Assembly (NCBI GenBank): GCA_040954595.2
Contig: CM082596.2
Coordinates: forward strand, 7,456,468-7,520,467
Direction of reading: 5' to 3'
DNA length: 64,000 nucleotides
DNA from: Balanoglossus misakiensis
Lineage: Eukaryota; Animalia; Hemichordata
Part shown: positions 1,996 to 36,500 of the stretch, piece after piece
Layout: each line of letters opens with the position of its first letter
How positions within the stretch are numbered: position 1 is the first letter of the stretch
Made by a program: the position numbers and the translations under genes
Notes under the pieces: generated by a model
What the model was told of the DNA's origin: nothing
What the model saw: only the letters and a program-made list of their open reading frames with translations
Database searches by the model: none

Positions 1996-2759
1996 TACAC
2001 AAAATACAAAAGGCTAATGAGCCCTAAAACAGGAAAGCTATCTCTTAATATCATAAGCGTCAAACCCAAGACATCTGCAACAATGTAACTGGACGATAAT
2101 AAATTAAAAATTCGCATCTGGAACACTATCAGGTAGTAAAACACAGGTACAATGAAAAAAAGAAGAAATTTTAAAAATAGGATATTTTTGCACAGAACCC
2201 AGCATTAGCAACAGGGCAGTCAAGCAAAATGCATCCCCTACACTTAGAGATATTTGAAGTTAACCTATTGTTTTCCTGGCTTGTCTCACTCTGGTTTCAG
2301 GGGTGGGTGGGGGTGGGTAATGACGGCAACAACTTTGCCAGTGGGCCGAATCTACTTCACATTGTTTTTAGATTTACAGAATAACAATTCTGTCCACACA
2401 TAGTGTGTAATGAACGACACTAGGTACGTGTCCTGAAGGGCAGCCCGGGTCATTCACTTCCTTGTGACAGAAAAATAAAAGCAGTTGGATAAATGCACAC
2501 ATTGGACTAAATTATTTCTTACATGAGTATGTGCATCAATATTAATGTTATCGAAGTTTTGAAATAGTCACGACTCAACCCTGTTTTGAAAGCTGAGTAT
2601 ATTATAATCTGAAAGATTCAGAAATTTAAATTTACTTTACGATCTAAGGATAAATGCCCGTACATAGCTAGAGCACAACGTGGAGAAGACAGAGGTCACG
2701 GAGGTACAAAGGGTGAAAGGTCATACGTCACTGGGGTGCGAAGGTGAAAAGGTGGTCTA

Positions 2760-5700
2760 TCACGACTGGTCCGACTCTGCTTGCTGTACCGGCGCCGGTG
2801 ACGGGACTTGGGTCGGGGGCGCCACAGAGGTGTTGATGGGGAACGAGGGGAGGGGGGCGGGGCCCGGAATGGTGGCGAACGACGCCGGGAGGGGCCCCGG
2901 GGGCGGGATTTTGAAGTCGGCCGGAAGCGAGACGGCCGGCATGGGTATCGACGACGGCAGGGAGAGCGGGGGGTTCGGTATCGACCCCGCCCCCATCGCC
3001 GTGGTCGACGGATTCGTCAGCCCCTGCGCAGCCGGAAATTGAATATTCATGTTGGCGAGGCCGGGTATGCTCGGTAGAGTCATCGGGGCTGAAAGATACA
3101 AAAAAAATGTCAGTCAGTGAGAGAAACAAAAGACTAGAAAAAAAAATGAAATTTACTCGTAACTATTTCCACACATTCCCAATAAGTACACCTCAAAAGG
3201 GAACTGACAGACCACAATTCGGTCTTCAGGATCAAACAACACGCCAAATTCTTTCCTCTAATCATACAAAAAAACTTTCACTTTCTTCTGCACATACTGA
3301 TGCACACATGAAAAAATCCTGTTAGACAGTGGCTGAAGTTACACCCCCCCCCCCCAACATAAAAGATCCTTGATCAGTAGCCTTTTAATGGAACAGACCG
3401 ATGATTCAATCATAAAACACAGTCAAACCTGTGTTAGTGGCCACTCTGTTACAGTGCCAGTGCAATTAAAGGCCAGTTTAGGAAAGTCCCTTGACTGGCC
3501 ACTCTTGACAGGTTTGACTGCGTTTTTTTCACCAGTTATCAGCCTCTCGTCATACTCGAATCAAAGAAACTTACTTGGTGGTAACATGGCCGAACCTGCT
3601 GTGGACACCGGCGCATACGTTCCACCCGCAGCCGTTGATGGTATGACGGGGATCGTCGGGGTACCACCGGCAGTCAGGGGACTGGTCACACCCGTGGACA
3701 CATTCACTGGAACGGTTGTTCCTAACGATAACGCCGATACTCCCGTTTCTATCCCAGCCGTCGTCGTATGAGGTGAACCCGATAATGAAACCTGAAACGA
3801 AATCATGGCAGGTTATAAAACTGAAACTATTGCTAGTATTATACTTTAGCTCAGGCCATATGCACATAAAATAACACATACAGTAAAATAGCAATTAATT
3901 AAGGTAAAAAAAAGTTAACTAGGGACATTTCTCTGTTTCCAGAATGTTTATTGAAAATAGGAATCTATGAATCACTAGGATTTAAAACAAAGTTAGCCAG
4001 TCCTATCATTATTTTACACTCAGGTGGATTATTTTGTAGATTTTTTGATCAATCAGCTCCAACAGTGAAATTATAACATTTCTGCTTTTACAATATCTTT
4101 CTTGTGTTTGAAGACTTACCTCTGAAAATCCGTCAGGAGGTGGAGTGACTGACGACAATGGTTGTGGGGGTATAGACGGATCTGCAGGGGGCGATGGCAT
4201 GCCTTCAAACTGCTTTGTTGGTATCCTATGCAAATAACCGTAGCCTATACCACAGCCGAGACTGTGAAGAAAAAAATACAATCACCGCCGTGTCAGTGAA
4301 GTCTAGCTACCGAGCATACAACCGCAAATAGTCAACACTATTACAGCAGGGTAAATCCTGTGGGGAGATTTTTTGTTTTGTTTGAGTGAAAGTAGCTAAA
4401 TTGTCCATCAGTTGCGTTTTCACACGAAAAGTTTGGAGTGGCTTCTTGACTATTACGAAAAGCACAGGCACGAAGTATGAACGTCTCAGGTGCAGAATTT
4501 TTCTCCATATCACTGTTAAAATGATCGACCTACACTCACTTGTGTTTACTGTAAAAACACTTTATTTTCGCGAGCAATAAATTTTCGCGTAATACGCGAG
4601 AGCCAAAATAGCGTGAAAATAAAAAGTCGCGTAAATTTTTTTGAAGATAACGATGCAGTTGTGAAATACGAGAACGCGAAATTAATCCTCGCGAAACAGT
4701 GGCCTCTCATGATATCGCGAAAAATTTCAACTCGCAAAAATAAAGTGTTTTACAGTATATAAACTCACTCACCTTCCTTCACCTCCCCAGTTTGAATTCG
4801 GAGTAAGTGTGACTTCTCTGACGCCGTCCGTTTCCACGTTGTATACATATAATTTTAGAGGTCTACCTTCATGGGATTCTATCAGGGAAAACAAGTCTTC
4901 CGACTGAAAGCGAGAAAGAGACAGGAATTATTATCTGTTGCATCACTGAACATTCTCTCTCTCGTGGACTGATCCTTAAAAGCATGCTATGGACATACAC
5001 AGACAGACACGTGCACACACAGACGGACACACAGATGGACACACATTACTCACCTCATGGAGTACAGAGTCAGCTCCTATGATATAATCTGTATTCGACC
5101 TAAGACCTGCATAATCAGCTGGACCATTGGGTTGTACATCCTGCAATAATGAATAAAAGACAATGAGTACACATACCATTAATAGCCCTGTAGTTACTAT
5201 AGACTAACAAGACACAAACAGTATAATACCATATGGTAAGTGCAAAAGTCCCTTGACACTATTCTTGTGATTGAAGATTTTGACTGTAGGCAATTCGCAA
5301 CAGGTGAAACGTGGAATCACTTTCTATAGAACACTGCAGTAGACTGCAGGCAGCATTTTATTCCGGGGGTAAGGCTTTTGCGAACTCTGCTGTTTACCTT
5401 AAAGGTATACAGTCACCCCCAATTTACATACGCCCATATATGGCTGAATGAAATGGCATATTTGAGCGTTCTAAAGAACATATGGTGGCACTCTTTTTTT
5501 CGCCACCCACTGAAAATCTGTGATTGGTTAGATCTCATTTTGCCATGGTACATTTTGTAACTATAGCTAATTTTCCATAGGTGACCGTATACCTTTAACA
5601 GTCCTAAATCCTAACCACTGGTCCAGTGAATACTCTCTACTGCACTGAACTATACTTGGACTAAGAGAGAGAGATACTCGGGGGAAATTTTGAAGGTAAC

Positions 5701-6951
5701 ATATAATAGAGTCTCGCGCTTTACTCACCAAGACATGCCACACATTTTCATTGGCCCCTTCAAAGGAACAGAATCGAATGCTAACTCCCAGAAGCCCCTG
5801 GCCGCCCCAGGCATTGCTGGGCGTCAACATGACTTCTCTCGTCTTCAGAGACTTGCTGCTGTACACCAACATCCTCACCGGTTTCTCCATGTTACTTTTC
5901 AAGATTTCTTTCAACGTGTCATTGTCTTTGTCCTGAAATTAAGGAAGGTAAACACATGTATTTTATAACTCATACAATCCCTACAACCATCTACTGGTGA
6001 GGTGGCGAAATCGTTTTTTTTTTTTAATGCAGATGGAAATTTTTAATGAAAAGGATTAGGAACAACCAGATGTACTCACCAGTCTCTGGTTGCCAATAGC
6101 AACAATAAAGTCAAAGAAAGCCTCTAAGCCAGCCTTGTGCCCGGGGGAATTCTCCTGTACCTACAGGTGAGAAAAGTAAACCAGTTATACATCATTAGTA
6201 AAACTACAGTTTTAAGCAGCAATAAATGCACATTGCAGCACAGTTATTTTCAATTGGTTAAGAGATAACCTACATTTATAAACAGTGGGCACACAGTCTA
6301 CAGTATGGTTCAAGTTTCTATGCGCATATCGAATGATGACGAAGAATTAGGGTTAGGGATTTTTGCAGAGTCCAATTTTGTTAACATCTGAAATGGACAC
6401 GTTGAGGCGACGTGTCGATGCGGGCACTCGCCTCGTACGGTTGATTGCATTAGCACATCGACAGGTACGGTGGTTTGACCGTTGGCAAGATTCGATTTGT
6501 CCGCATTATGGGCTGTGTTTAAATTTGCCAATGGTGACTGTGCAACACAATAACATTTGTTTGCACGGTTACGACACCGGTGCATACCGATTCGTACGTC
6601 CGCGTCCGATCTCATCGCCGTGAGTGATGGCTCTCTAGTTAGCCCCTCCGCGCCGCTGGGGTCAAGCGATGCGATCAGAGAAGACAATGACGATTGGTTT
6701 TATCAAAACGATCACTGCCGTGAAATCAAACTTAAATCATACCTTCTTTATCATGTTTATCATTAGTCAAAAGCGTTCCACATGTTACACTGGTTCCGAC
6801 TTCCTGACCCGACATGCATGTACAACTATGACCCGGTGCCAGACAAGGAGATGTTTTGACAGTAAAACACGCAGATATTTTCACTTACCCTCAAGACGTG
6901 GTATCCTTCCGAGCCGCCTCCCGGCACCTCTGCACTTGAAGCACCGCCCAT
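2760..6951 (-). CDS. GORASP2: Golgi reassembly-stacking protein (GRASP55/65 family), 8 coding exons, ~417 aa
   Basis: Exons 6889-6951, 6080-6160, 5729-5932, 5054-5140, 4773-4903, 4120-4261, 3575-3791, 2760-3088; all GT-AG and phase-consistent (1254 nt). Translation [21 protein letters not shown]|[27 protein letters not shown]|[12 protein letters not shown]...[27 protein letters not shown]|DVQPNGPA...[20 protein letters not shown] is the recognisable tandem-PDZ GRASP domain with myristoylatable Gly2, followed by a Pro/Ser-rich tail. An invertebrate gene may be co-orthologous to GORASP1 and GORASP2. Confidence 0.96.
3420..3520. mobile_element. MITE family C (CAGTCAAACCTGT TIR, Tc1/mariner/pogo-like ends)
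   Basis: CAGTCAAACCTGT...ACAGGTTTGACTG; longer relative at 37765-37944. Confidence 0.7.
4547..4757. mobile_element. MITE family B (TA-flanked, CTGTAAAA TIR)
   Basis: TA-CTGTAAAAACACTTTATTTT...AAAATAAAGTGTTTTACAG-TA, with internal CGCGAAAA repeats. Confidence 0.8.
5399..5598 (+). mobile_element. MITE family A, copy 2 (GORASP intron 3)
   Basis: Same TIRs, TTAA flanks and internal sequence as 1803-1995. Confidence 0.85.
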
Positions 6952-9691: not shown

Positions 9692-10824
9692 TTATGCTTG
9701 GGGCAACAGTGGGCTTGTCTCGTCGCTCTCTTGGTCACGGCCAGCTGGGCTGTTTTCCAGCGCTGCTATCGTGGCTTTGAAATCTTCGGTAAAATCCGAA
9801 ACTGTCTCCTTGATGTCTTCGGCAACTTTCGGGACTTTCTTGAACTCGCCGATGTTGTGCTTGGCGCTGACCACAGCCCCGGGGACCTGCATTGGCGCCA
9901 GACCACAATTCTTCACCGAGTTGATTATTTGCGGGGCCCGCTCGTCCAGTATGTCCTTGGCTCGAGCTATTGCGTCCGGGAGCAATTTCACGATCCCCGT
10001 CGCCGTGTCGCTGATCTTACCCATTGATTCTTCGAGTTTAGCGGCGATGTCTTCGACGTTCTGGTCTTTGTGACCACTTTTTGGACCGGTGGTAAGTACA
10101 AATTTTGGGCCGTTTTCGAGTCGCAATTTCAAATTGGCTGTAGGTGATAAACAATGGAGGGAACTCCTTGTTAGAAATACTCCGGGCTATGTTAGAAAGT
10201 GAAAGCAAGAAAATTCATACCTACTGTCTATGATACAATACACATGAAAATCTGAAAACGACAGAAGTTTAACCAAATGATGATTGATGGTGGCTCTTTA
10301 ATAACGTGACCTTGTGACAGATGACATCTTTTAATTTTGTTAAACAACAACAGCAACAACAACAACGACAACAACGTCAAACAAAGATGCAACCAGAAGG
10401 AGACAGCTTACGGTATTTTGCTTTCAGATCCACCACCGTGTCTTTCAGACTGTCTTCCTTGTCGTGTCCAGCGGCCTCCTTGAAATTGTTCACCGCCTGT
10501 TGGAACGCCTTCCTCGTGTCCACCGCCTCGTTGAACGGAGAGGCGGCGTCATCGAAAATCTTATCTATGTTGTCGATCTTCATCGATTTCATGTTCAGTT
10601 TCTTGACGTCCTTGGCCGCTTGACTTTTCTGCGAAGAGCAGAGAACGAAACCGAATCAGTAGAGACCATCTTAGACTCTCTGTAGCTCCCGGCCTCGGTG
10701 ATAAGCACCAAAGAGGCCTGTATCTGCGTCTTTCTACGAATATTTGTCATTCGTTCAAGTATATATGTCATGATAGAGAGCAGCTCCGTTGGGTACTTAC
10801 ACAACAACAACACTTGTTTCCCAT
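9692..10824 (-). CDS. Lipidated helical protein family, paralogue 1 (~228 aa), unknown function
   Basis: Exons 10801-10824 (MGNKCCCC|gtaagt), 10412-10628, 9692-10137; intron phases 0 and 1; GC-rich codons. Core KKLNMKSMKIDNIDKIFDDAASPFN...YPNLKLRLENGPKFVL...HNIGEFKKVP; C-terminal ETSPLL. Confidence 0.88.
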
Positions 10825-11041
10825 GGTCACCCGGCTTGAAAATTGACGAATGGTAGAAATGCTAGAAAACGTCTCAGGTCTGCAACTATCTCTGAACTGT
10901 GTTAACAGGACTCAGAAAATGAGACTACACAAGTGACAACGCAATGCACACGGTGCATCAAGCAGTACTAAGTAAAAGCTCGGTCACCGGATTGCGGCGT
11001 TCCGTATCCTTATTTCTATTTTTGGCGTTATTTTGAGGTCA

Positions 11042-11051
11042 GGAAATTCCC
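11042..11051 (-). promoter_or_regulatory. NF-kB consensus site (GGGAATTTCC) upstream of paralogue 1
   Basis: Exact GGGRNWYYCC match 218 nt upstream of the ATG at 10824. Confidence 0.45.
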
Positions 11052-11368
11052 AGTAAACGTTGTTTGTCGCTCTGTTGCTCTTTTGTTCATCAAGAAGCCC
11101 ACCACGCAAGCGCGTGGGAGGAAGAACGCGTGAGGCACACGTCACTTTAGCCGGTGAACGAACTTTCTAAGGTTGAACTTTCTCGAACTAACTTGTGCAG
11201 CAAGTCTGTTACTACCCCCGGCAGTAGCCTACCGCGATAGATTTGGGGTGGGGATTGGCGCTCTGTCGCTGGAAATCGTAGCTGCTTCTAAAACGGCATT
11301 CTAGATGTGAGAAGACACAGATTTCTATAGCTAAATGAAAGTCACCCTTGTGGGAGCACCAATTATCA

Positions 11369-11384
11369 GAAACGAAAGTGAAAG
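11369..11384 (+). promoter_or_regulatory. IRF-E/ISRE-like element (GAAACGAAAGTGAAAG) upstream of paralogue 1
   Basis: Triple GAAA including the canonical GAAAGTGAAAG, ~550 nt upstream of the ATG. Confidence 0.4.
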
Positions 11385-12577
11385 CGTTCATTTTTGTTTG
11401 CCGGAAGTGATATGCCAGGGCCGTAACCCGACCACCACTAACTTAAACAGTAAGTTAAATACCCCTCTTGTATATGTATATCCTGCGGTTGTAACGTTGG
11501 CTCATTTAAATACTGGTACAAATCTTGCTATTGGGAAAATGTGTCACGTTGTACATTTATGCATTCGTGGACTTTGGAAATGGACATTGAGTAATTTCTA
11601 TAGTTTGCTTTCGGCTTTGCCTGGGTCGTTTTTCTTATATACATATACATGTACTGGCAAAAGTGTATCGACTGGCCCAGTACACACCTAGTACCAGTAC
11701 CATGTCCTCTCCATACCTTCTATAGTGAGTAAATTTTACCGGAAAGGAGTGTGTGACCTTCGCACCGTCTTGAATAAACTTAACATCCAAATAGTTGTTT
11801 TGGTATATACTATCCTCTTTATTTACCCAAAAATCTTAACTATCGCACTATGTACCATAAAACTATCCAACTAATATGACATATAGTATGTCACAGTACA
11901 AACTAAACATACTTGAAAACTATCCAGCACCTTTGCAATTTGATTTTGTGATTTAGGACATATAGATTTTTTGTGACCACTATCGATGTTCAATACTTTT
12001 TTATAAGATTTAGATTTTTACAGAAACTAAACAGAGAATCCAAGGCATCATTGCAGAGAAAATTTCAGTACATAAAATACAATGCTTGTACAGTCACCAA
12101 GCTTGTAGTTTGTGACACCAAAACAGAACCACTAAACTCCCGCAGTTATTATACTGCCAACTTTTCATTCCACGTTAAGTTACCTGTAATGCCAACCCGC
12201 GTAACCATCATTCTAAATATCTTACTATAACATATCATGAAATTATTAAATGCGAAGTTATGTGGGGGGTTCAACTCACTAATAAAGCGACGAACCTTCC
12301 CCGAAAACGACTCAAAACATGCCAAAATAACGTATCTGACTATCTTATCCAGCCTATATCAACTCACGACCTTGTCAACACGTGAAATACAAATAACTTC
12401 TTCAATTTATTCTGATTTTTAAATTTAAAAAAGATCTATTCTAACTACTTGTATATATAACTACAGTAATGTACTTAAAGTTACTTACATCAGCTCTTGA
12501 AACTACAATCTCAAGCAGAAATCTAACACAACTGCATGCCTATTAATGAAACCAATACATCGTTTATGTGTATTAAC

Positions 12578-12680
12578 GTTAAATCTCAATCTGATTAAAA
12601 TCAGATGTAGGGCACGGCGACTTGGTCCAAGTCCCCGTTCCCGTTCCCTACATCTGATTTTAATCAGATTGGTTAAATTT
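12578..12680. mobile_element. 85-bp foldback mini-element with 26-bp TIRs and a 9-bp TSD (Mutator-like)
   Basis: 12587-12671: CAATCTGATTAAAATCAGATGTAGGG...CCCTACATCTGATTTTAATCAGATTG, flanked by GTTAAATCT / GTTAAATTT. Confidence 0.7.
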
Positions 12681-13076
12681 CAGAGTAAATGCAAAGGACG
12701 GACTCGCCATCAGCTATCCCCCGGTATTATTTGGCGTTGCGAATCGTGATTTCAGTTTGTCAAGCTTCGAACTTGCATACTAGACGTTGTCAATCACCAC
12801 AGCACAGTTCTTCTCCCATCTCGACATGTCACTATTAAGGAGCAGCACCCCCTGACAAGCCATCAACACCTTCTTGCATGAATTAAAGTCACACGTGACT
12901 TTGACAATCTAATGATTGAGATATTACAAATTTTAAGACTACTTTTGTTATTTCATGTCATTTAAAGATAAATATCGTGAGAGTAGAGGTTAAACTTTGC
13001 ACCACAAGAAGTACTAGTATCCAGTACAACAATTTCCTCGATAAAATTATTTCATTTGATTTATTCGGATCTTAAT

Positions 13077-15771
13077 TTATTCTTTGTCTATTAATTGAGT
13101 AGTTTCCGTTGCTTCCGGTTTTTTCTCCTGGCCGTTTTCTGTGACTTCCTGTTGTTTCTCCGGTTCGCTTTCCGATTCGCCGAGTTTCTTGGCGACCTCA
13201 CGCAGCTCTTCTTTGAAACCGCCCAGTTTCTCCATCACGGCAGCCTGTATGGAGGGCGCTTTCTCGCACTTCCTGATGTTGCCGGCGACGCTCTTCTGAG
13301 CCAGGGCCTTGTCTCCCTGGCTCAGCTCGCTGTCGCCGACCCGCGCCTTCAGGTCTTCGGCGTCCGTGACGATTTTGTGGGTGGACTCCACGGCGGCGTT
13401 GAACGAGTCGCCCATCTTCGCACTGGACTCGTTGATGTGCTCGAAGGCACCGATGATCTTTTCGCCGAAAGATTCGCTGGCATCGCCGCTGGGGTCTCCC
13501 ATCGTCAACACGAATTTGCCATCCTGCTCGGCCAGGGTCATATTGGCTGCAAGTATGAAAATTTGTATCATCGCTATCAAAAGTGTTGTCCACTTAGATT
13601 GACATGCAAAAGACAAAAATCACACCGCGATACTCAAACCTGGCCTTTAGTGTATGCCTGTTCAAAGTCCCTCTATTACAGAGGGACTGTAGTCTGTTTT
13701 ATTCGATGTGTACAGATTGCAACTACTTTAGGGAGTAAAAGTCAAATGGAAGTGACAGTGCCACCAGCGTTCGGAGTATGATAAAAAAAAACGTTGACGT
13801 TTGTTTTCTGTCCAATATATTTGATCAGAATTTTGACAAAATAACGCGAAACAAAAAGTGTACGAAACAAAGGTATTTTTCGTTGTCTTGCTTTGTCTTG
13901 TCACATTTTGGTCTTCAGTGAATACTTACGATACGTTGCCCCTTTGACTTTGAGGAAAGTCTCTCCGATGCTGTCCCATTTCTTCTGCCCCGTCATCAAC
14001 TTGAACTGCTCTATGGCCTGTCCGTAGGCTTCGTACGCTTCGATGGTCTCGTTGAAGGGCGCCACCGCGTCGTCGAACGTCTGATCCAGGTCCGAGATGT
14101 TGGTCTTCTCCATCTCCAGCTTCTGAATCTTCACGTCTTTCAGTTCGGAGCTCGAGTCTGTTGTATCTTTGTCGCCTCCCTGGTTGTGACAGAAAATATT
14201 TACGTGCATTTGAGAAAATGTGCGCTACCCACGCCGTCCAGGTCACAGAACGTGTTTGTGTGGACGCGAAAATAAACAGTGTTATAGGGTTTAGAAGCGT
14301 TCGGGAGTAAAGATGGCTGAAATTATGTGGAAGGCAAAATTAATATAGATTGCAATACTGGAATTTCAGTGTGTGAAACATGTACCACAGAATTCCCCCC
14401 CCCCCCCAGGGAATCAAATGGTTCTCCCCTAAACGCACATTGATATATATCAAACCTACTCGCAAAAGAAGAAATTAAACTTTTATATATACGCCCGTAT
14501 TCTCACCAAAAGTCAACCCAGAATATTGTGCGTGGGAAGACTGTACGATGATTACGCAACCCGCACAATGCAATAGTGACCCATCAATTATTTTGTAACA
14601 GGTTGTTCGAATGGGTGGTACAGGTAATGCAGGAATGAAGGACGTAACAGACTTTTTTCTGTGCGGCCCTTTCACGATATAACCAACGAGAACATAATTG
14701 GCGATGAATTAAACCGCGTTGATATAATATCTCTATGACGAGTAATAAGTATGTTTTGGTTTGACCTACGATGAGAATGCGATTTTATAAACAATTTATG
14801 TAAATTACATAAATATGAATTATTTATGTGTGTTATTTTATATAAATAATATGTGCTCGTTTTCATTTTCCCTCGTGAAACAAAATCGATTTCAGTAATT
14901 TTTTCTTGAATTTTGCATTGTGCTGTGTTTGGTTAGGTCATACGTCGCAAGCTCCTGTTTGCTGGCTTTGATGAGGCAACGGTTTGAAATGTAAAATGTG
15001 ATGGGCACGCGTATCGACATATGGTACAATGACGGAGCGCTACAAACGATGAATAAAAGAGAAACGGGATAAAAGCGGTGTTTTCATGAATTCAAAGGAC
15101 GAATTAACCCGATCACTGCAATGAGCAGGTAACAAGTCAGACAGATTCAGCGGATTGAACAGCCTGAGCCTTGCTAAACCGCCAAGGATCTAGACACGAA
15201 ACGACGCTGTTTATTTTCTGTCAGTTGTAAGCGGGGGCCGATTTTAGAAGTGATAATTACTAGCTACTGTGGTCAATATGGCTGGTAATATAGTAAACAT
15301 CATCTTTTGTGCAGAACGCTGCAGGAATATTGGGTAAAAAGCGAAGTGATTATAAAAAGCAGTTTGTGTGTTTTTTAACTGTTGTGTCAAAAAGAGTCCC
15401 TGTTAATGGGGTGTGGCAGCACGTCTGAATTATCGGAACAATAGGAATTCTACGATTAAAACAATAAAAAAATATGACGTGTGGTCTTTAGCGTTTTATA
15501 TGCATCTAAAGCATCATGGACAAGCGGGTGCGTGATATGGTTCAAAAATGTATGTGAACGGAGGAGAAAATCTCCCTTTTTACGACATGACGCAGTCCTT
15601 GTACCGCCAGAAAAAATAACCAACTGGCAGGCGATGGACCCTGACATAAATTTGACTGGGGATTACTGCGCATCACAAAAGGACAGATGCTAAGCTCACA
15701 TGACATAGACGATTTAAACAACTTACAAAGCAATCCAGGAACGGACACAGGACGGAATACAGGCAGCCCAT
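13077..15771 (-). CDS. Lipidated helical protein family, paralogue 2 (~254 aa), unknown function
   Basis: Exons 15727-15771 (MGCLYSVLCPFLDCF|gtaagt), 13930-14179, 13077-13546; phases 0 and 1 as in the paralogues. Core QKLEMEKTNISDLDQTFDDAVAPFN...YPNMTLAEQDGKFVL; C-terminal ETTQLI. Confidence 0.87.
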
Positions 15772-16495
15772 GGTTCACGAATTAAATCCACGAATCGTTG
15801 CGATCGACGTTTTCACGATTTTGTTGTATTTGATCACAGTCGGAGGGGAAAAAAACATGCATAAAACATCTAATTGTCGCAACTACCAGCTGTTGTGGCT
15901 GGTGGCTATTTTTGTCGTGCTAATTTGGTTTTGTCGAATGCTGCCATTAGCCTGATGGATAAGTTAGAGTTTTTGTCGTGTGCGGGTGACGTCATCGTGA
16001 CCAGGAAGCGGCGGTTAAAAGAGCAATATTAACCCGTTTGTGCAGGTTCCCCCAAGGGGTCATTGGAGGTCACTCCTTCAGACAGATAAATCAATTTCAT
16101 ATTCCTTTGTTTTTATCTTCATGGCGTGGCAGATTTTAGCGAAATAAATTGTTGGTGTCATCTGTTTGGTTGTTTGTTTGCTTTCCTCCTATGCATATCG
16201 GTTGCGTTGCACCCCCTGTCATCCGTCCCGCCCATACGCGCACTAAATATGTTGACTTTCGCAAGATCAAACATGCACGCGTCGTGATGAATTTCTCGGT
16301 TTATTTTTGACAAAGTCAACACATTAACCAATTTTTACAGTATTTACCAACAGATTGTATAAGTCTATGTAATATACGGTTCATACGTGAGTGTTTTAAG
16401 CACCCAGACAGGCTGAGGCAAAGAGCATCATATTTTTAGAAACGCCATATGCATCGTTTTGAAAACCGTCAAAAGTGGAGCTGCAACACTCTATA

Positions 16496-16692
16496 TTAAA
16501 GGTATACGGTCACCTATGGAAAATTAGCTCTAGTTACCATGGCAAATTGAGATCTAGCCAATCACAGATTTTCAGTGGGTTGCACACGCGAAAAAAAGAG
16601 CGCCACCATATGTTCTTTAGAGCGCTCAAATACTAGTACGCCATTTCAGCCATTTCAGCGTACGTAAATTGGAGGTGACCGTTTACCTTTAA
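16496..16692 (-). mobile_element. MITE family A, copy 3 (inverted)
   Basis: TTAA-AGGTATACGGTCACC...GGTGACCGTTTACCT-TTAA; internal sequence is the reverse complement of copy 1. Confidence 0.85.
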
Positions 16693-16942
16693 CGCCCATA
16701 TCTACTCTAGACTCAATGCCGCCATTACTTTATTCCCCCCTACACACACAAGTAGTCGTTGCCTTTAAAAAGTCACTATGAAATTATCAAATTCAAATTA
16801 TTGCTTATTTGAATTTCAGATTATTTTATGTAATATTATCCAAGAATGCCAGTCCGCCCTTCTTGCTATCACCATTTCCATGATTTTATTCCCAAAGTGA
16901 CGTCATTTATTATTGTTTACTTCACATACAATTCAGATAGTG

Positions 16943-17074
16943 AACACCTATTGCCTGGCCATGAGGGCCATAGCAGCCGTTTATTACACCCGAGGGGCTG
17001 TGAGTTACCAGAATCACATACGAGGGGGTAAAAACGGCTGCTATGGCCCGAATATAGGCCAGGCCATAGGTGTT
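16943..17074. repeat. Imperfect long palindrome (hairpin-type interspersed repeat)
   Basis: AACACCTATTGCCTGGCC..GGGCCATAGCAGCCGTTT pairs with AAACGGCTGCTATGGCCC..GGCCAGGCCATAGGTGTT. Confidence 0.65.
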
Positions 17075-17599
17075 TTATAATAAACCTCATATCTGTGAAC
17101 TCACATTGGTCACGTGACCGGTTTATATTTGTTCTGCTATTTCCCTAGGGATTCATAGTCGATTCTATTTTCTTATCGCGTGACGGATTCTGGCGAATCA
17201 CGACACAGTATTAGCATGAGGTATATTATAATAAATTCTATTCACTCTGATCGTGATACATACTGAAGAACAAGGCCCAGACTCCCATATATTCTAAAAA
17301 AAAAGAGTGTGTACATTTACTTAATTATTATGAAAGTTAGTCGCGTTGACACATCGCAATTAACTCCAAATGGAGTCCTATGTGTACTATTTTTGGTGAT
17401 TCAAAAAAATTAATTGTCTGAAATAAAATGAAAATACCCTGTCGCTTGAGTGAATTTTCAAACAAACACTATTTAGGCTAATTTAAATTAAATTAAAGCT
17501 TAGATTAAGGGTTTGGACCCATGTTTCGATTTCAGAAATCTGAGGGACTTTGGTTTAACCAGTATAATAATAATCTTTCGTGTGATTGTCCAATGCTTC

Positions 17600-19355
17600 C
17601 TATTCAATCAACTTTGTTTTTTCAGTCGCCTCGGTCGTTTTTGCTTGAGTGGTATCCTGTGCTGCGGGTTCGGCGCTGGGGGCGGGGTCTCCTTCTTCCA
17701 GCTGGGTCAGGCTCGGCGCCTGCTGTTGCGGGTTGACTCCGATCAGATCGCGAGCCTCTCGGACCTGCTCGGCGAAGTCGTGGATGAGGTCGAACATCTT
17801 CAGCTCGATGTCCGGCACCTGGCGGAACTGGCTGATGTTGCGGAGAACCACCCGCGTGGCCTTGTAGATCTCCATGATTTCCAGGTCCTCCTGCTTGATG
17901 GCCTGTCTCAGTCCGGCCACCTCGCCGATGATGTTCTCCGCGTCTTTGGCGGCGTCCCCAGCCAGATCCACCACCTCCGTGGCCAGGTCCCCGATGGCCG
18001 CGAACTGCTCGGTCAGCCTGACGGCCTTCTCTTGGGTCTGAGCCGTGGGCACCTTGGCCGCCCCCGGAATCAGGGTAAAACTCAGACCCTTGCCCACTTG
18101 CAGTTGGAGATTAGCTGTAAAAGACACGAGACATTAATTCCATATACGAGTCAAGCTTTGCATGACACTAGAATAGATGCAGATTTTTTTAATGGAACCT
18201 TTAGGCCATATAACATGTGCCAAGTGGTGTTTGTACTGTGTCACATAAAACTGCCCCACCCACGTTAACTATCTAGTCACGCGAGATCTCCAGGGTCTCG
18301 TGGACTTCGGAAAGTGGTCTATTTAGAATATCGCAGCCGGGTTCAGTTTTAGATAATGGGGACGGTGTCTCATCCCTCAATTGCCCCCGCGACCTGAAAA
18401 TAAGCTGTATTTTTTTTTTTAAATTTTACTTACGATATATTCTTTTCAAGTTAATAAGCGTCGTCTTCAGAGACGTGCCGCTCCTGGACCCGGCTGTGGT
18501 TCTGAAAGCCTTCACGCTGCTCTGAAAATTGACGACGGCATCCACGGTCTTGTTGAACGGATCGGCCGCGGTCTCGAAGATCGTGTCCACACTTTCTATG
18601 TTCGTCCGCTCGATTTCCAACTTCTGAATGACAGCCTCGTCATCGTCGCCGCCGCCACACAGCGAAGCCTGTGCGAAGAAAACTCAGAAATTTCAGACAA
18701 TAAAATGGCGTCAGGCTGAATTGGGCAGCAGAATTCCTTGCTTCAAGCAATTCCGCGATAACTTGATCTTTTACTGACATCGGATTCCTTGAAATGATTA
18801 TAAAGGCCCCTGTTTGTTGACGAGTGCATAAACAACAAACATTTTGCACACGGAACTGTTTATCGGGAAACCAAAGATCAACCGGGCATAACAGGTTGCC
18901 CCTTTAATTAATTCGGCCAATGGAATCGCTGTCAAAATTCAAACAATTACTCTAGTCGGGGCTTTGGACCGTATTTGTCTTTATGGCAATTCATTGCATG
19001 ACATAAACGCCATCAGCTGTACATACCTTCTGAGGTATTTCCTTCGCGTTAGATGTTCGCAGACAATCCGAATTCTCACAAACAGTGCACGACAAAACAA
19101 ACAGTCCGCGACAAAAATAAAAATTAAGCCAATTTTTTTTCAAAATAGGTTGCCGACAAGCTCTGAAGGTCGCCGACATTTCAGGCGAAGTGTTTCACAA
19201 GCCCGACCGCCGGTTTCTTTCGAAGGAACCACGGAAATCCGTCAAACCAACCCATGTCACAAAATGAGACCCTCATCACGTCTAATGTAACATTTTTTTT
19301 ATAAAAAATGGGGGGAGGGGGAGGGAATACTCACGCAACACCCTATACACCACAT
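17600..19355 (-). CDS. Lipidated helical protein family, paralogue 3 (~256 aa), unknown function
   Basis: Exons 19335-19355 (MWCIGCC|gtgagt), 18434-18668, 17600-18114; phases 0 and 1. Core QKLEIERTNIESVDTIFETAADPFN...YPNLQLQVGKGLSFTL...RNISQFRQVP; C-terminal EKTKLI. Exon 1 is the least certain part. Confidence 0.84.
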
Positions 19356-20985
19356 CGTTTCTCAACGGACACGTAACAACGTATGGTGACTCTCCGAATA
19401 TTCAACTGAATCACAGCTTTCTGTCAGAGAGAACAACATCTGTTGTTCGTCACTGTCGCCGAAAACATGATATTCTACACATGGCGCACAAACAGTGAGA
19501 GAGGTGTTTGCATCTCATTTGCATATTTCACTTAAATAGAGGGAGAACTGAAAATGTTCACCAGAAAGTTTGTTTTTTTTAATTCCGCTAGCTATAACTT
19601 TTTTCACTATTTTTTTCATTATTCTTTGATCCCCGAAGAAGAATTAAATACCCAGTTAGCTTTGTCTGAGAAAATGAACCATTGCTGCATGCAGTCTGTC
19701 GTTTCCGCTTTACAAACCATCGTTGAAGGGGGAAATCTTTCGTTCATCGTAAATTGGCACAATTCAAGATTAATGTTTTGTTTTGTTTCGTTTTGTTTTC
19801 TTTTCTTTTCTTTATATATGTACTTTTACGCTGGCCCGCTAACAAGAATGTGTTACAATACAAATGACCTAATAAATTTAAATGAAAAGGAACTTTAGTG
19901 TTCGAAATTTGTTTCTTATTCGAATCCCTGAAACGTAACATGATGACATGTCAAGTACATTTAGTTTGTTAGCACACCAATATGCGTTCAGTCAGCATTG
20001 TTATTTTCGAAATTTGAATTTAAGTCCGCACTAGAACTCTTTGTCGTCAATAACAAGCAATGGTTGCAGACAAGCTGAATACTGAGATTTCTTGCATGGA
20101 TGGAAAATGCCGTCAGTACAGTTAGAGCCGGTAAAAGCTTTAAACAAATCGGTTTTTCGCATGTCCTTTTAGGCCATATGCTTAAATATTAACCTTGCAA
20201 GTACACATTGAATGTTGGAACAAAACAAAAGCAACACATGTGACCAAGGATAATCGCCTTAGAAACAACAATGGTCAGGTTTTGTCTAAAAATAAGTCGA
20301 GAATTTCGAAATGTGCGCATCACTATGCGCATATCATCATGCATGATCAATATCTGAATATCCTAGTTTCTCAACTAAATGAACAGTGTCATTTGTTTAA
20401 CTCTGACTGATAACGCGAAGTAAAATTCGCGCTTTATTATTGTTCCTCGTCACCAAAATATATAATAACAACCCTTTAATTAAAATTTAATAAATGTGAA
20501 CTCTTAAAACTTGGATATAGGCCTATGTACATTTGTATCACAATATAACGGAGCAGAATTGTCCTCTAAAATCTGCATATCTACAAAGGACGTGTCGGGG
20601 GTCAAATTATTATATCTCATCGATTACTTCATATATATGTTTCAGCACCGTGACGGCTAGGGGCCAGACGATAGCCGTGCTCCGCTTCGTATTGCAGGCA
20701 CGGCGGCCTCCGCTGCTACACCCCATGACGATCAATGGACGGTGCGCGCCAGGTAATAAATTTTAGCATTGGTACCAATATGGAAGTATTGGTGCGTTTG
20801 GATTCTATGAATAGCCAGTGACGTTTGTGAAATCTTTCTTCTGTTTTACTGATTCTATGAAGATTTTACACTTTTCATAAAATGAACAGAACAGCATTTC
20901 AACGGAATTCACGCATAACCCGTTTCCTATTAAGGTTGTTTGTTCGGGCATAGTTTCAAAATCTGTTCATGCTCCCAACTCCGAC

Positions 20986-21180
20986 TTACAGGTATACGGT
21001 CACCTCCCGTCTACATACAGTACGCCCATGCATACATTTTGCAGAAATGGCATATTTGAGTGTTCTAAAGAACATATGGCGGCGCTCTTTTTTTCGCATG
21101 TGCCACCCACAGAAAATCTGTGATTGGCTAGTTCTCAATTTGCCGTGGTAACTAAAGCTATATTTGCATAGGTGACCGTA
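20986..21180 (+). mobile_element. MITE family A, copy 4 (damaged ends)
   Basis: AGGTATACGGTCACC...GGTGACCGTA with the family internal sequence; right end truncated. Confidence 0.8.
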
Positions 21181-21984
21181 GGGCGATACAAAACCAAATT
21201 AGATGTGACTCTTAATAAATGTTGTTTAAAAATATACATTTTATTATCACTTTTCGTACATTTGAATTATACTATAGCTAGCATTGCTCTACATATATAC
21301 GTACGTGCAATAAAATGCAATATAACAAAGAACTTTGTCCGCGGGGTCAGTCAACATCCGGGTTACTTTAGAGCAAATGTGTTAAAGAAAGCAAGCAAGG
21401 ATACTGATAATAAATTTTTGGAGAAACTTCGCCCTGGCCTGTGATGGCGGGCAACCATATTGTGTAATAAAAATGGCAGATTTAATAGTAAGGAAAAATA
21501 TCACATGCGTATATACACAGCTGTAGCTGGATATGAAAATAGTCGACATCATTTTAGTATTTGTTCCGACAAAGATCTGTAAACGCTACTTTCGTCGAAT
21601 TGGTACGCGACTTGTTGTGCGCGCGCCAAGGTGACTTCTTTCTTAAAAAGAAATAAGTACCGACGTCGTCCTGTAAATGGGCGGAATTTGACTTTAGAGA
21701 TGCACTAAAATAAAACAAAAGTTACATACATTATTAAATTATATAATAAATTATTTACAATCTTAGTCATTTTATTTAATCTATGTTCGATTATATGTAA
21801 TCATTGACAGTTTCATTCGTCGAATATTTTTTATTTCAGATTTTAGTGATTTGGTTTCAAATAAACGTTTTATTTTTTTATTTTTACAAATATACAAGTG
21901 TAAAGCGCGCTCATAAGGTTCTTTTACACCTTTTTATCCACGCCAGTTTTATGTGATATGGAAATTTCACCGGGATCTAAGAAA

Positions 21985-24406
21985 CTAGGCCGCGGACTTC
22001 AGCGCTTCGATCGTGTTCTTGACCTCCTGCGTTGTGTCCTCTATTGTCTGCTTGAAGGCGTCGCCGATCACCGGGACTTTCTTGAACTCGCCGACGTTGT
22101 GCATGGCGTTCTTCAGCGCCCTGGGGATCTTCAGCGGGCTCAGTCCCGCGTTCTTCACCATGTCTTCGATCTCCGCCGCCTTCTGGATCAGGGCCTCCGC
22201 CGACTCCACGGCGGTCGTCACCAGCTCGATGATCTCCGACAGCAGCTCGCTGATCTTGACGAACGCGTCGACGATTTTGACGGCCAAATCGGCCACGCCT
22301 TCCCCGCCGCTGCCGTCACCTGCCGTCAACACAAACTTAGGACCTTCCCTGATCTCCAGTGTGAGGTTAGCTACGGAAATGTAAAAAAAGAGAAAGGGAG
22401 ATAACATGGTATTAAAACACCATAAGCTGCAACTTTTGGGAAACTATCATGAAATTCATTTTCACGCTGTACTAATATTAATCAATAAGGATGTATGCAC
22501 TGAAGTATATACAGGTATTATAAACCCCAAGTGTGAGTGTATATGCAAGTTTTAACCAGATAAATAATAAAGCTTTGCCGCGAAGAAATATGGCCGCCAC
22601 CGTGGGAAAAATGCAAAATACAATGAAAACGTTGCAATTCACTGTCTTTTTCAGAACTTCAACGTTGGCCAAATCCAAGGCAAGGAGCTATTTGCCCGTG
22701 CCAATAAATATCATTACGTCCAAAAAAATCTACGTCCACGGTACCAGAAATGAAAGTACGCCCTCAACGGCTTACAGGGACAAGAGACGGGGGCAGTTCT
22801 GGAATGAAATACTCACGAAATTTCATCTTCAGCCCTATAACGACAACTTTTAGAGTATCCTCTTTCGTGTAGCCCGCCATCACTTTGAATGCCTCCACGG
22901 CGGCGTCAAAGGCATCCTTCGCGTCGACGGCTTTGTTGAATGGAGCCGCAGCATCGCCGAACATCTGGTCAAGATCTTCGACGCCCGTTTTCTTGATGTC
23001 TAGCTGCTCCACGCCACCCTTGCTTTCTGGTTTCTGATAAAAATACGACAAAACAACATTCGGTAAACACATTTTGGTTATTTCAGTAAAATGAAACTTT
23101 CCCTGAAGCGCAGAAGTCGACATTTTTCTCAGTATCGCTTAATGCAAAAACACAATCTGCTTAATTGGCACTCTGTATAGTGAAACATAAAATGCCGTCT
23201 AAGAAAAAGTATTGAAGGTATGGCCTTGTGCGGTCGCCCATGCAACTATATAGTAAGAAACCTGTTTTCACTCACTCACTCACTCACTCACTCATTCATT
23301 CACTCACTCACTCACTCACTCATTCACTCACTCCCATAACGTGTTTCGCATCGAAAAGACAGCATTTAGTAACGATACCTAAACTACACTATAGGTACTA
23401 GTATACTACACGGGTTCCCCATACTTAGTAATAGCTCAGCCGAAAATGCCGTAATTATGATAAAACACTTCAATCAAGGATGATGCAGAAGTGATGTCTT
23501 GCAATATCAAGATAACTGGTAACCCCTGGCAATTTCCAATACACAAACGAGATGCGTTTTGATTTTACTATACATGCAGACGCGCGGCAATCAATTCTAA
23601 TTCTTGACCATTTTCTTTTTTTATCTCGGATATTTTATGTCACGGGGGCGGTGCAGTACATGGTTGCTTTGGACATTTTCTGTTGTCCATTCGACCAATC
23701 GATGCGCATGGGTCGTTTGTTTGCATCGCCATGTCAATAGTTGACCGTAGCAACCAGAGTGTTGTTAGCAACCGTAATGATGTTAGTAACTCCCCTATGT
23801 TCTTTCGGTTCGTGGTAAATAAAGACAAACATTTTATCTTCACGCCTTTGTTTTTAATTAGCAGAAATAATACTCATCTAATCATTTATATTGTTCCTTC
23901 TACAGAGATCTAACCAAAAGCGCATTACAGGGAATCGAAAGTAAATTATATATAAATAATTCAAATGTATATAAATAATAAAAACCAATACCATTATGAA
24001 AAAAGTAGACATTTTTTCTTCATTAGCGACACATATCTGGTGCATTGCTTCATTAAAAACAGATCTATTCAATATTTTTTAATTAAGCAAAGTGGCACGT
24101 CACTTTCCCTACAGTAGAAAAAAAGGAAAGTTTGAGCCAAAGTTGAGAAAATATCGAAATTCAAGGAGGCGGCCTCGCGTGATATTTTGGCGGAGGAGTT
24201 AGAAAGACTGGCTCCCTGCGCAGATTTACAAAGAACCGGAGTAAATAATTGAAACATATCGCAACAACACACCGCTTCTGCTGAACGGTAAGCGTGATAA
24301 GAAAGATTAGCAGGAAGTGTAAAATCGTGAGGAAAAATTTAACACCTCGCAATTGACTCACCCTCCCAGAATCAGTTTTTGTCGACGATGAAGATCCACA
24401 ACCCAT
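21985..24406 (-). CDS. Lipidated helical protein family, paralogue 4 (~215 aa), unknown function
   Basis: Exons 24362-24406 (MGCGSSSSTKTDSGR|gtgagt), 22817-23033, 21985-22370; phases 0 and 1. Core EQLDIKKTGVEDLDQMFGDAAAPFN...FPNLTLEIREGPKFVL...HNVGEFKKVP; closest to paralogue 1; lacks the C-terminal tail. Confidence 0.88.
23268..23333. repeat. (CACT)n microsatellite
   Basis: Directly visible tetranucleotide run. Confidence 0.95.
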
Positions 24407-24614
24407 TTTCAGTTTCTGCAAAACGTGATGAAAAATTGGCAACAACGAAATAAATCGAGGTTGTCGCTCCGGGTCCCAGATTTCGTCTGGCCCTCCTCCA
24501 GATTGTGATAATCGCTATACTGACGCTGCACTTGTTTGCTTCGTATCACGTGACGCCTGAAACCCGAGTATACTGGTCATTCATTTCAGCAGGTTGGGCC
24601 TCTCAAGTCACCAT

Positions 24615-33530: not shown

Positions 33531-36500
33531 ATTGATTGCATAGAGCCGTAACCGAATGAATCTAACAGAGAATTCACTCTCCTCGAGTTCGGAGGCGGTG
33601 CCGATCGGAAAGTGTGCGACGTGTTCGGCCGTGTTGGCGGTCGTCCTTTCAGAAGTTTCTCATCTTTCTTTTCTGTCGGTAGTGTGATGTGATCTGTCTC
33701 GCCCGCGCTAAGTTTCGCCGAGGTCTCCTCTTTCTTAGTGACCGGCGCACTTGATGGTCGTAGCTTGGGTATCTTCGGTTGATTGTCCAGGGTTAGGTCG
33801 GAGCACGCCATGCTCACGTTAGTTCTGTTGCGGATGTGTATGAGCATCTGCAAGACAAGAGAAAATGGCAATATTGTTTCAGGTTGATTTTATTATACTG
33901 CAGTTTTGATTGTCTGCTGTAAAAACAATGTCATCTCAATATCAAGGGTTATTTGAGACTTTGAGACATTCATGATGATTCAATGGACAAATGAATTTAG
34001 CAATCACCCAATCACATTTGTAGATAACATGGAACATTCACATCTCTTTGTAATGTAACTGACGTGGTAATTCATTTTTTGATACTCACCTATCCTAGCC
34101 TGGAAGGCAGTGTGTTAGTGAAAGCAATGAAGATTAGATAGATAAGTGATGGACAGAAGTTAGTTTTGATTATATCGATGATGAAAAGATGCACATTAGA
34201 TAAGGCTAAGATGCAGGTTTTATTAGTGAGTGAATTGAGAACAATGTTATTCACAGCAGTGACATACAAGACAAAGGAACACTTGCCACCAGGATGGGGG
34301 ACTTGTATGTAGAATTTTTGTGTTGTAGTCATGGACACTAGAATAAATGTGTACATGTACTGCAGTGTTCTCCCCAGAGCAATTAAAGCATGGTGGCCAC
34401 CACTCTTTAATTATGAGAAGACAATAGAAATTAATTAACATAACAAGTGTTTATATTGTTATGTAAATTAGCCGCCATGCTTTCCCAGAATCCTGGGTAG
34501 AACACTGTTGTGTAACTGGTACCAGTAACAGGACAGAAGTATAGCAACAATGATTTCTGAGAACATCTGGTCAGTTTTCTGCCAAGTCTGAATCAAAGCC
34601 TTCATCAGCACACACTCAGCAGATGGCTTTAGAGATCAACACTGCCTATACACTCTCACCTGCATAGTTTCTTTGGCATTGCTGAGCTTCTCAACGCGTT
34701 GCACTTCCGTGTTGGATTTCTCGTTGAACAGCTCGTCGCATTTCTGCATGTACCTGCGCCTGTGGAATGAAATCAGCAACAGTAAGTTCAACAACAACAA
34801 GAAGAAGAGCCGACCTCAGTCTGTGTTTATACAAGTCTGAACCGATTGTGACACCATATCTACCATCACCCCCACCCTGCCCTGCCCCCCACACACACAC
34901 ACAAATACTGCGGACAGACCATGGTTTTAACAATGCCATTAATACTGAAAAATGTTCTGTCTCACACGTTTTCTTTCATAGGAACACCAAACATTGTAGG
35001 TTACTTCCTAAACTTTGGAAGCTATACAATAGAGTTTAGTATATGGTCACCTATGTAATAGCCAGTTACAACAGAATGTTGCATTCTAGCCAATCACAGA
35101 TTCTCACTCAGTTGCCCACATGAAAAAAAAAGTGTGGCACACCTTTGTCGTTAGAAGATACCCTTCTAACCTTACATGGGCATATGTAAATTAGAGGTGA
35201 TTGTGTTTCTTTAATTGTACAGTAGTGGTCATTCGTACCTGAGGTCTGTGTTTTCTCCCATTAGATTGTGCATCCTCTGTTTGTACTTATCATCGACTTC
35301 TTGTACTTTGTCTAGGAAATGTTCCTCAAACCCAATAAGACGAATTTTCTGAAGAGATAAAAGGAAATGTACAATGTCATGTTTTGGCTGCATAGTTTTC
35401 ACACTGTCCTGTGCAGTGATCAGCGGGCAAGTACATGTACTGGCAGTTCACATGAAATCTCTATGGCTTGATGTACCATCTTGACTTAGAAGAGAGTTCA
35501 CACTTGGAATTAGACTTTCACAGAAGATTTCATGCCCAGATACGAAAAAGATGATGTTAAGGATGTACGTTCAGTAAAATTGAAAGTATTGTCATTTTTT
35601 TTAATTGTGGATTTTTGGATTCTTCTTTGTATGTATAATGAAAATCCGTAATAAAATATAGGGGTCACCGCGCTTGTTTTTGAAATACAGAGCCATGAAT
35701 TTAGCCGATAATAGAAGAAAACTGATGACTCAGCATTTTTCACCAATGGTTTGTCTATGGGCAAAATTTTTGACGCAATTTATCTCAAAATAGAGCGCGG
35801 TGACCCCTATATTTTATTTGACCAATGAATTTATATTTGCTGGATTGAGCTATGTGTAAAATTTCGTGAAAATGACAATAGTAGAAGTTTGTTTTCTAGC
35901 AATTTTCAATGTAATCCTATGGGAAAAAGACCGGGCGCGCACTGTTTCCGGTTTATGTTCTGCGCGTACATCCTTAAAAGAACCTCTATAAACCGGACAC
36001 CTTTGCAAACCAAACAATTTCTTCAGTCTTTTTGGTGTTCGGTTTAGACAAGGTTTTGCTGTAGTAGTACTCACAGCATCATCCAGTTCAAATTTGGTCT
36101 TTTTCAGTTCCTCTGTCACAACCTCCAACTGTTCTGACTTCTTGGTCAATTCCTCTTTGACACTGTGAAGCTGATCCAAAGCTTTCTTCATGTTTTCCAT
36201 GTCAACTGCAGCCGTGGAAAACTTCTTATGGAAAGTCTGAGAGAGATTACAATGTTTGGTCAATTCTCACTACTGGTACCTTAAAAAGGGTTTTCCTACC
36301 TAGATGAGTGATAAAAATCTGATGTGGTCGACAGAAATTCAAGATGGTGGATTTCTGCAGGCCATGTTTAATCAATGGTGGGTCATAATTAAATAAACGT
36401 TTCATCATACTGGAATTTTGTAAAAAAAAATGTTGAATAGTTAAAAGAGTTCCATATACTTACTACAAAAACAAATTTTAGGCATAAAAACCATCACAAA

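Follow-up and report, generated by a model that had tools for sequence, protein, structure and literature searches.

A tandem cluster of four paralogous genes, here called P1 to P4, occupies the minus strand of a 64,000-nucleotide window from the acorn worm Balanoglossus misakiensis (assembly GCA_040954595.2, contig CM082596.2, positions 7,456,468 to 7,520,467 of the forward strand), and each gene is composed of three exons (Table 1). According to the original prediction, made from the letters of the window, every paralogue starts with its own micro first exon that encodes a different lipid anchor. The four exon-1 peptides were indeed located at the predicted positions, each followed by a GTAAGT or GTGAGT donor in phase 0 (4/4) and joined in frame to exons 2 and 3, and the spliced open reading frames (ORFs) specify 228 (P1), 254 (P2), 256 (P3), and 215 (P4) amino acids. 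The intron phases are uniform among the four genes, intron 1 being in phase 0 and intron 2 in phase 1, and no fifth copy of the family was found in the window.

As a chance control, 28 stretches of 15-45 nt running from an ATG to a phase-0 GT[AG]AG donor were collected from both strands of the window. An anchor-like start, defined as Met-Gly with Cys or at least two Cys within 10 residues, was present at 4/4 of the P1-P4 positions vs 1/24 elsewhere. Scanning upstream of each exon 2 for alternative starts yielded 7 strict and 48 relaxed candidates, among which the only Met-Gly-plus-Cys starts were those already predicted; none of the 21 relaxed candidates for P3 begins with Met-Gly. Upstream in-frame ATGs near P2, P3, and P4 run into a stop before the start codon. 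The term micro first exon, on the other hand, fits only the coding part, which measures 21-45 nt. Acceptor-like AGs lie upstream of the ATG at 65 nt (P3), 9 nt (P4), and, more weakly, 100 nt (P1), so that exon 1 may sit behind an intron in the 5' untranslated region (UTR), and the short exons of P1, P3, and P4 may be first coding exons rather than first exons. If these candidate acceptors are used, the whole exon would extend to 86 nt in P3 and 54 nt in P4; a microexon is a whole exon of about 27-51 nt or less.

Table 1. Predicted exons and motifs of the P1-P4 cluster (positions within the window)
Feature	Positions	Strand	Remarks
P1 first coding exon, MGNKCCCC	10801..10824	-	predicted myristoyl and up to four palmitoyl sites; 5/8 identical to P0001
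P1 exon 2, first half of PLCL-C-terminal-like domain	10412..10628	-	gene model
P1 exon 3, second domain half, acidic tail, stop	9692..10137	-	69% to P0001
P1 acidic dileucine ETSPLL	9704..9721	-	identical in P0001
P2 first coding exon, MGCLYSVLCPFLDCF	15727..15771	-	Gly2, three Cys, hydrophobic; 12/15 to P0004
P2 exon 2	13930..14179	-	gene model
P2 exon 3, acidic tail, stop	13077..13546	-	gene model
P2 acidic dileucine ETTQLI	13089..13106	-	ETTKLL in P0004, ETTQLL in P0007
P3 possible 5' UTR portion of exon 1	19356..19420	-	preceded by acceptor-like AG; in-frame stop inside
P3 first coding exon, MWCIGCC	19335..19355	-	no Gly2, three Cys; predicted palmitoyl-only; Met-Trp NatC-type start
P3 exon 2	18434..18668	-	fourth Cys is residue 11; Cys11-Gly12 in register with P0005
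P3 exon 3, acidic tail, stop	17600..18114	-	gene model
P3 acidic dileucine EKTKLI	17606..17623	-	EMTKLL in P0005
P4 stretch from acceptor-like AG to ATG (9 nt)	24407..24415	-	suggests upstream UTR exon
P4 first coding exon, MGCGSSSSTKTDSGR	24362..24406	-	Gly2-Cys3-Ser6 dual-acylation type
P4 exon 2	22817..23033	-	gene model
P4 exon 3	21985..22370	-	stops right after domain; no tail, no dileucine

The original prediction overlooked the identity of the protein body as well as a C-terminal dileucine motif. None of the eight exon products of P1-P4 had a Pfam match above cut-off, and the core stayed without one in all 45 family members examined; PH, EF-hand, X/Y, and C2 matches were found neither in these exon products nor in full-length orthologues. 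When 1.84 billion representatives were searched with a profile, 67 matches were obtained at E 0.001; the C2-bearing one among them is a sea-cucumber PLCL2 whose matched part (residues 121-315) lies past the C2 domain. Alignment to this post-C2 part with hhalign reached 93% and 97% probability over 180-190 columns. The match to P0038 (E 6e-6) also supports the presence of the C-terminal helical domain that follows C2 in PLCL/PRIP, and two Ptychodera members carry the NCBI name 'inactive phospholipase C-like protein'. By profile comparison, the predicted body of P1-P4 is homologous to the PLCL/PRIP C-terminal domain of about 190 residues. P1-P4, as modelled here, are therefore not PLCLs themselves; they are relatives of the PLCL tail that stand alone.

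In its AlphaFold model, a P4 orthologue (predicted local distance difference test score, pLDDT, 90) is made up of long helices, a short helix, and a beta-hairpin. Searching the PDB by sequence gave a best E of 0.11 (with P0001), the family profile retrieved generic coiled coils only, and Foldseek returned 0 matches at E 0.001. A fold search found generic helical bundles only, with a best Z of 9.5 where values under about 13 fall in the range given for unrelated helical bundles, and this does not establish a new fold. The ESM Atlas provided no usable feature match, and its structure rows stayed below the naming threshold.

With regard to the N-termini, Gly2 is present in P1, P2, and P4, and P3 has Trp2. 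The myristoylation consensus includes Ser, Thr, or Cys at residue 6 and neither Pro nor an aromatic residue at position 3 (PMC4692089, section 7). The starts of P1 (Asn3/Cys6), P2 (Cys3/Ser6), and P4 (Cys3/Ser6) all fit it at these two positions and have Cys nearby, and a Gly2-Cys3-x-x-Ser6 pattern is common throughout the family. Thus, the lipid-anchor reading of the original prediction holds up as a prediction: by established rules, P1, P2, and P4 would be N-myristoylated at Gly2 and S-acylated at nearby Cys. P3 would be S-acylated only, its Met-Trp being N-acetylated by NatC, for which Met-Trp is a listed start (PMC4692089). A precedent for the P3 state is found in the two-domain member P0050, which lacks Gly2, has a cluster of Cys at its start, and carries a dileucine near its N-terminus.

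The closest proteins derive from the acorn worms Ptychodera, Glandiceps, and Saccoglossus and are 44-71% identical to their P1-P4 counterparts, compared with 29-43% among the P1-P4 cores. In trees built from 25 and 18 chosen rows out of about 80 proteins, P1 pairs with P0001, P2 with P0004, and P3 with P0005, all from Ptychodera, at bootstrap values of 99-100, and P4 is 64-71% identical to P0069, P0070, P0071, and P0003. A third homologue search gave no further P2 or P3 orthologues. The claim that the N-termini diverged between paralogues was borne out: the P2 exon-1 peptide shares 12/15 residues with its orthologue, and that of P4 shares 12/15 with three named hemichordate proteins and 14/15 with P0003, vs 2-5/15 with the paralogues in both cases. 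Moreover, tblastn with the orthologues recovered exon 1 alone for P2 (E 0.004) and P4 (E 3e-5 to 7e-4), and exon 1 of P1 and of P3 was not recovered. The first nine P4 residues are identical across Saccoglossus, Ptychodera, and Glandiceps; the Saccoglossus and Ptychodera lineages have been separate for over 370 million years (PMC4729200). P0003 is a continuous ORF of 216 amino acids within a 1,099-base sequence, in which a P4-type start is fused to the domain, and this sequence is likely a spliced transcript. Five Ptychodera members lie apparently on one contig and three Glandiceps members on another, suggesting that the cluster is old.

The loss of Gly2 from P3, noted in the original prediction, is specific to the lineage. 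The Ptychodera orthologue P0005 retains Gly2, with Cys6 and Cys11-Gly12 in register with P3, so that Trp2 arose in this lineage and is no fixed trait of the paralogue. The Trp2 codon (TGG) is one base away from a Gly codon and could represent an allele or a sequence error, although the neighbouring residues have changed as well.

At the opposite end of the protein, P1-P3 and five related proteins keep [DE]xxxL[LI] in acidic tails that otherwise cannot be aligned. Of 16 hemichordate-type proteins, 8 have the motif within their last 14 residues, at shuffle p values of 0.002-0.038 each, and it is missing from all 5 of the P4 type. As the tails of P1-P3 are of low complexity and unalignable, they are probably flexible and exposed, and by established rules their [DE]xxxL[LI] would bind the adaptor protein (AP) complexes AP-1/2/3.

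Taken together, P1-P4 are probably small lipid-tethered, non-enzymatic adaptors built on the PLCL-tail core and carrying a predicted two-part address, namely an N-terminal acyl anchor and a C-terminal dileucine. P4, with an MGCxxS-type anchor and no dileucine, would reside at the plasma membrane and represent the ancestral state of the family, whereas P1-P3, with anchor plus dileucine, would be sorted by AP adaptors to endosomes or lysosomes, the copies having been re-addressed after duplication through ordinary substitution. We consider this division into an ancestral plasma-membrane form and AP-sorted forms rather probable. A weaker part of the proposal is that, once at its membrane, the three-helix bundle would bind a partner, as the domain may do in PLCL.

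Several observations weigh against this proposal. The core is just about 17-20% identical to PLCL, and the agreement of the PLCL region model (pLDDT >90) with that of the P4 orthologue, in which helices and strands follow the same order, is not independent, since the PLCL model was built with the alignment of the P1-P4 family. P2 has Tyr at position 5, which is not among the residues given as permitted there for myristoylation (PMC4692089, section 7). Among all hits, a dileucine does lie near an end in 8/15 multi-Cys starts vs 1/17 single-Cys starts, which favours the proposal, but the Fisher p of 0.005 overstates independence because 5/8 positives are related hemichordate proteins; the other three (P0022, P0034, and P0050) carry the motif near the N-terminus. 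The coupling is not strict, as 7/15 multi-Cys hits lack the motif, including P0006 and P0008, which have several Cys and no dileucine. Nor do the dileucine-bearing proteins form one clade in the tree (3 changes), although a single clade is not rejected (approximately unbiased test, p-AU 0.26). Finally, the exon-1 peptide of P3 agrees with its orthologue in only 2/7 positions.

This last figure, together with the 5/8 of P1 and the long terminal branch of P3 (0.76-0.78), would also be expected if all four proteins were tethered at the same membrane, with N-termini drifting under a loose need for acylation and the copies differing in expression or partner; at 29-43% identity between the cores, a change of partner is plausible. 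However, the anchors of P2 and P4 are at least 80% kept with their orthologues while core identity is 64-71%, and the dileucine is retained in tails where nothing else aligns, so we regard a common address as unlikely. Less likely still, the core itself would be membrane-active, able to shape or tether membranes or to form pores, with the anchors directing this activity to different membranes. Many family members do bear a membrane or envelope address, tandem two-domain members exist, and the fold-search rows include CdvA (Z 8.6), syntaxin Habc (8.5), MIC60 (8.3), YaxB (7.8), and ClyA (6.9) at root-mean-square deviations of 3-5.6, but every one of these Z values is within the range of unrelated bundles, and no Foldseek match supports them.

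The original prediction also took exon 1 for a separate modular exon, and in its strongest form this would mean that each anchor was acquired or exchanged together with its entire exon. Intron 1 is in phase 0 in all four genes and placed just after most anchor residues, and the exon-1 regions of the paralogues have little DNA similarity (1/6 pairs at p 0.025), which is compatible with independent origins. Yet the anchor class follows a core tree built without exon 1, on which its 4 groups require 4 changes against a minimum of 3 and a mean of 8.9 after shuffling, and no discordance between anchor history and core history was found among the 15 hemichordate-type sequences compared. Moreover, one Cys of P3 is encoded in exon 2, in register with the orthologue, and beyond animals, too, a Met-Gly-Cys start is widespread among family members. 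The layout is not special to P1-P4 either, since a gene for GRASP55/65 (GORASP), which adjoins the cluster downstream (2750-6951, minus strand; PF04495, E 1e-24), has a short first coding exon of 63 nt (6951-6889) that also begins with Met-Gly. We infer that the anchors diverged after duplication by ordinary substitution; nothing points to exon swapping, and an exchangeable exon 1 is the least credible of the explanations considered here.

Paralogue-specific lipid codes are already well known, so the point made by the original prediction would by itself be ordinary. In Src-family SH4 domains and G-alpha proteins, dual acylation at Met-Gly with a nearby Cys varies between paralogues; P1-P4 contain neither a kinase nor a GTPase domain. 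The homologous core of PLCL1/PLCL2 (PRIP) lies after C2 and is part of a protein addressed to membranes by PH and C2, whereas P1-P4, at 215-256 amino acids, lack PH, EF-hand, X/Y, and C2 and would rely on the predicted acyl anchor. The plant calcineurin B-like (CBL) proteins of types I-III resemble P1-P4 in that the paralogues share a core but differ at the N-terminus: a dually acylated MGCxxS/T sequence leads to the plasma membrane, and a Cys-rich S-acylated sequence leads to the vacuole (PMC4030171). Their EF-hand core is unrelated, and a C-terminal dileucine is not mentioned in the excerpt of that article. Fusions of LAMTOR1/p18 reach lysosomes by means of myristate, palmitate, and an acidic dileucine (PMC7039192); all three signals lie in residues 1-39 of LAMTOR1, as opposed to the C-terminal dileucine of P1-P3, and no homology is claimed. 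The layout of P1-P3 is similar to that of HIV-1 Nef, in which a myristoyl anchor and a folded core are combined with an ExxxLL that binds AP complexes from a flexible C-terminal part (PMC12115986), though this is an analogy between unrelated folds, and cargo binding by P1-P3 is hypothetical.

What adds to this point is the carrier, a domain of about 190 residues that has no Pfam match and for which no solved relative was found, homologous to the PLCL/PRIP tail. None of the papers listed by the literature searches, in which few subscription journals were covered, dealt with the stand-alone domain, its PLCL link, or the paired dileucine, and the excerpt of PMC4058080 contained nothing on a stand-alone domain. 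Being small, the stand-alone versions should lend themselves to expression, structure solution, and assay much more readily than full PLCL, and a cluster whose four copies differ in predicted address offers a ready test of the role and location of the domain. Human PLCL/PRIP proteins are tied to secretion and PI3K-AKT signalling.

Outside hemichordates, brachiopod, annelid, sea anemone, Vitrella, and Mastigamoeba proteins are among the family members that were looked up, and one member with a signal-peptide-like start belongs to a Myxococcota genome, where a single locus was found. By homology search, the domain thus occurs as a stand-alone protein in animals, protists, and one Myxococcota genome. 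Of the 67 matches, 31 open with Met-Gly and have a Cys within 12 residues, in most cases along with Ser6; a crude rule assigned a signal-peptide-like start to 10, 19 start otherwise, and 4 are fragments; the signal-peptide group aligned to the hemichordate profile at 98.5%. Domain fusions involve PX (assigned by Pfam in P0060, with P0057 looking similar by eye), C2, and, weakly, OmpA. Within P0057, P0060, P0061, and P0066, an OmpA-like fusion below cut-off and, by eye, a lipoprotein-like signal before the domain were also seen, and P0050, P0027, P0019, and P0002 are tandem two-domain members. It is conceivable, and we offer it tentatively, that the C-terminal domain of human PLCL1/2 stems from an ancient membrane-adaptor family of bacteria, protists, and animals that is re-addressed by a change of its membrane signal, be it a signal peptide as in the bacterial members, an acyl anchor, PX, or the PLC scaffold. 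The tailed acorn-worm copies would then be Nef-like bridges between cargo and AP complexes, and the cluster would amount to an experiment of nature with four arms, where one domain is routed to different compartments by its anchor and dileucine tail jointly. At the single Myxococcota locus, the member (L001 243-929) adjoins, by eye, a 5'-3' exonuclease-like ORF.

Coiled-coil exons are scattered upstream of the cluster on the minus strand, at about 26960-48500 (e.g. 35850-36062, 37249-37524, 38296-38562, and 48102-48362). None gave a Pfam match above cut-off; the upstream gene to which they would belong is reminiscent of FLACC1/ALS2CR12. Human GORASP2, PLCL1, and FLACC1 are all located on 2q, and the neighbourhood of GORASP, PLCL-like, and FLACC1-like genes is a possible synteny lead. 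Between GRASP and P1 (8574-8900), overlapping open frames occur on both strands, the minus one being very hydrophobic, and no Pfam match above cut-off was obtained for them. The observed/expected ratio of CpG is 1.0-1.2 across the cluster (8000-32000) vs 0.46-0.61 beyond 32 kb (32000-60000), a contrast as in mosaic gene-body methylation, where the unmethylated state is typical of regulated genes. Judged by this ratio, the P1-P4 cluster looks unmethylated; CpG content does not mark the promoters of P1-P4. At least five copies of a dispersed, roughly 190-nt repeat with matching ends, resembling a miniature inverted-repeat transposable element, are present (near 1918, 5512, 16505-16692, 20986-21180, and 45559), and two of them flank P3 in opposite orientation. 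In addition, an inverted repeat of 31 nt, 97% complementary and with a 23-nt spacer, is situated between P2 and P1 at 12587-12671.

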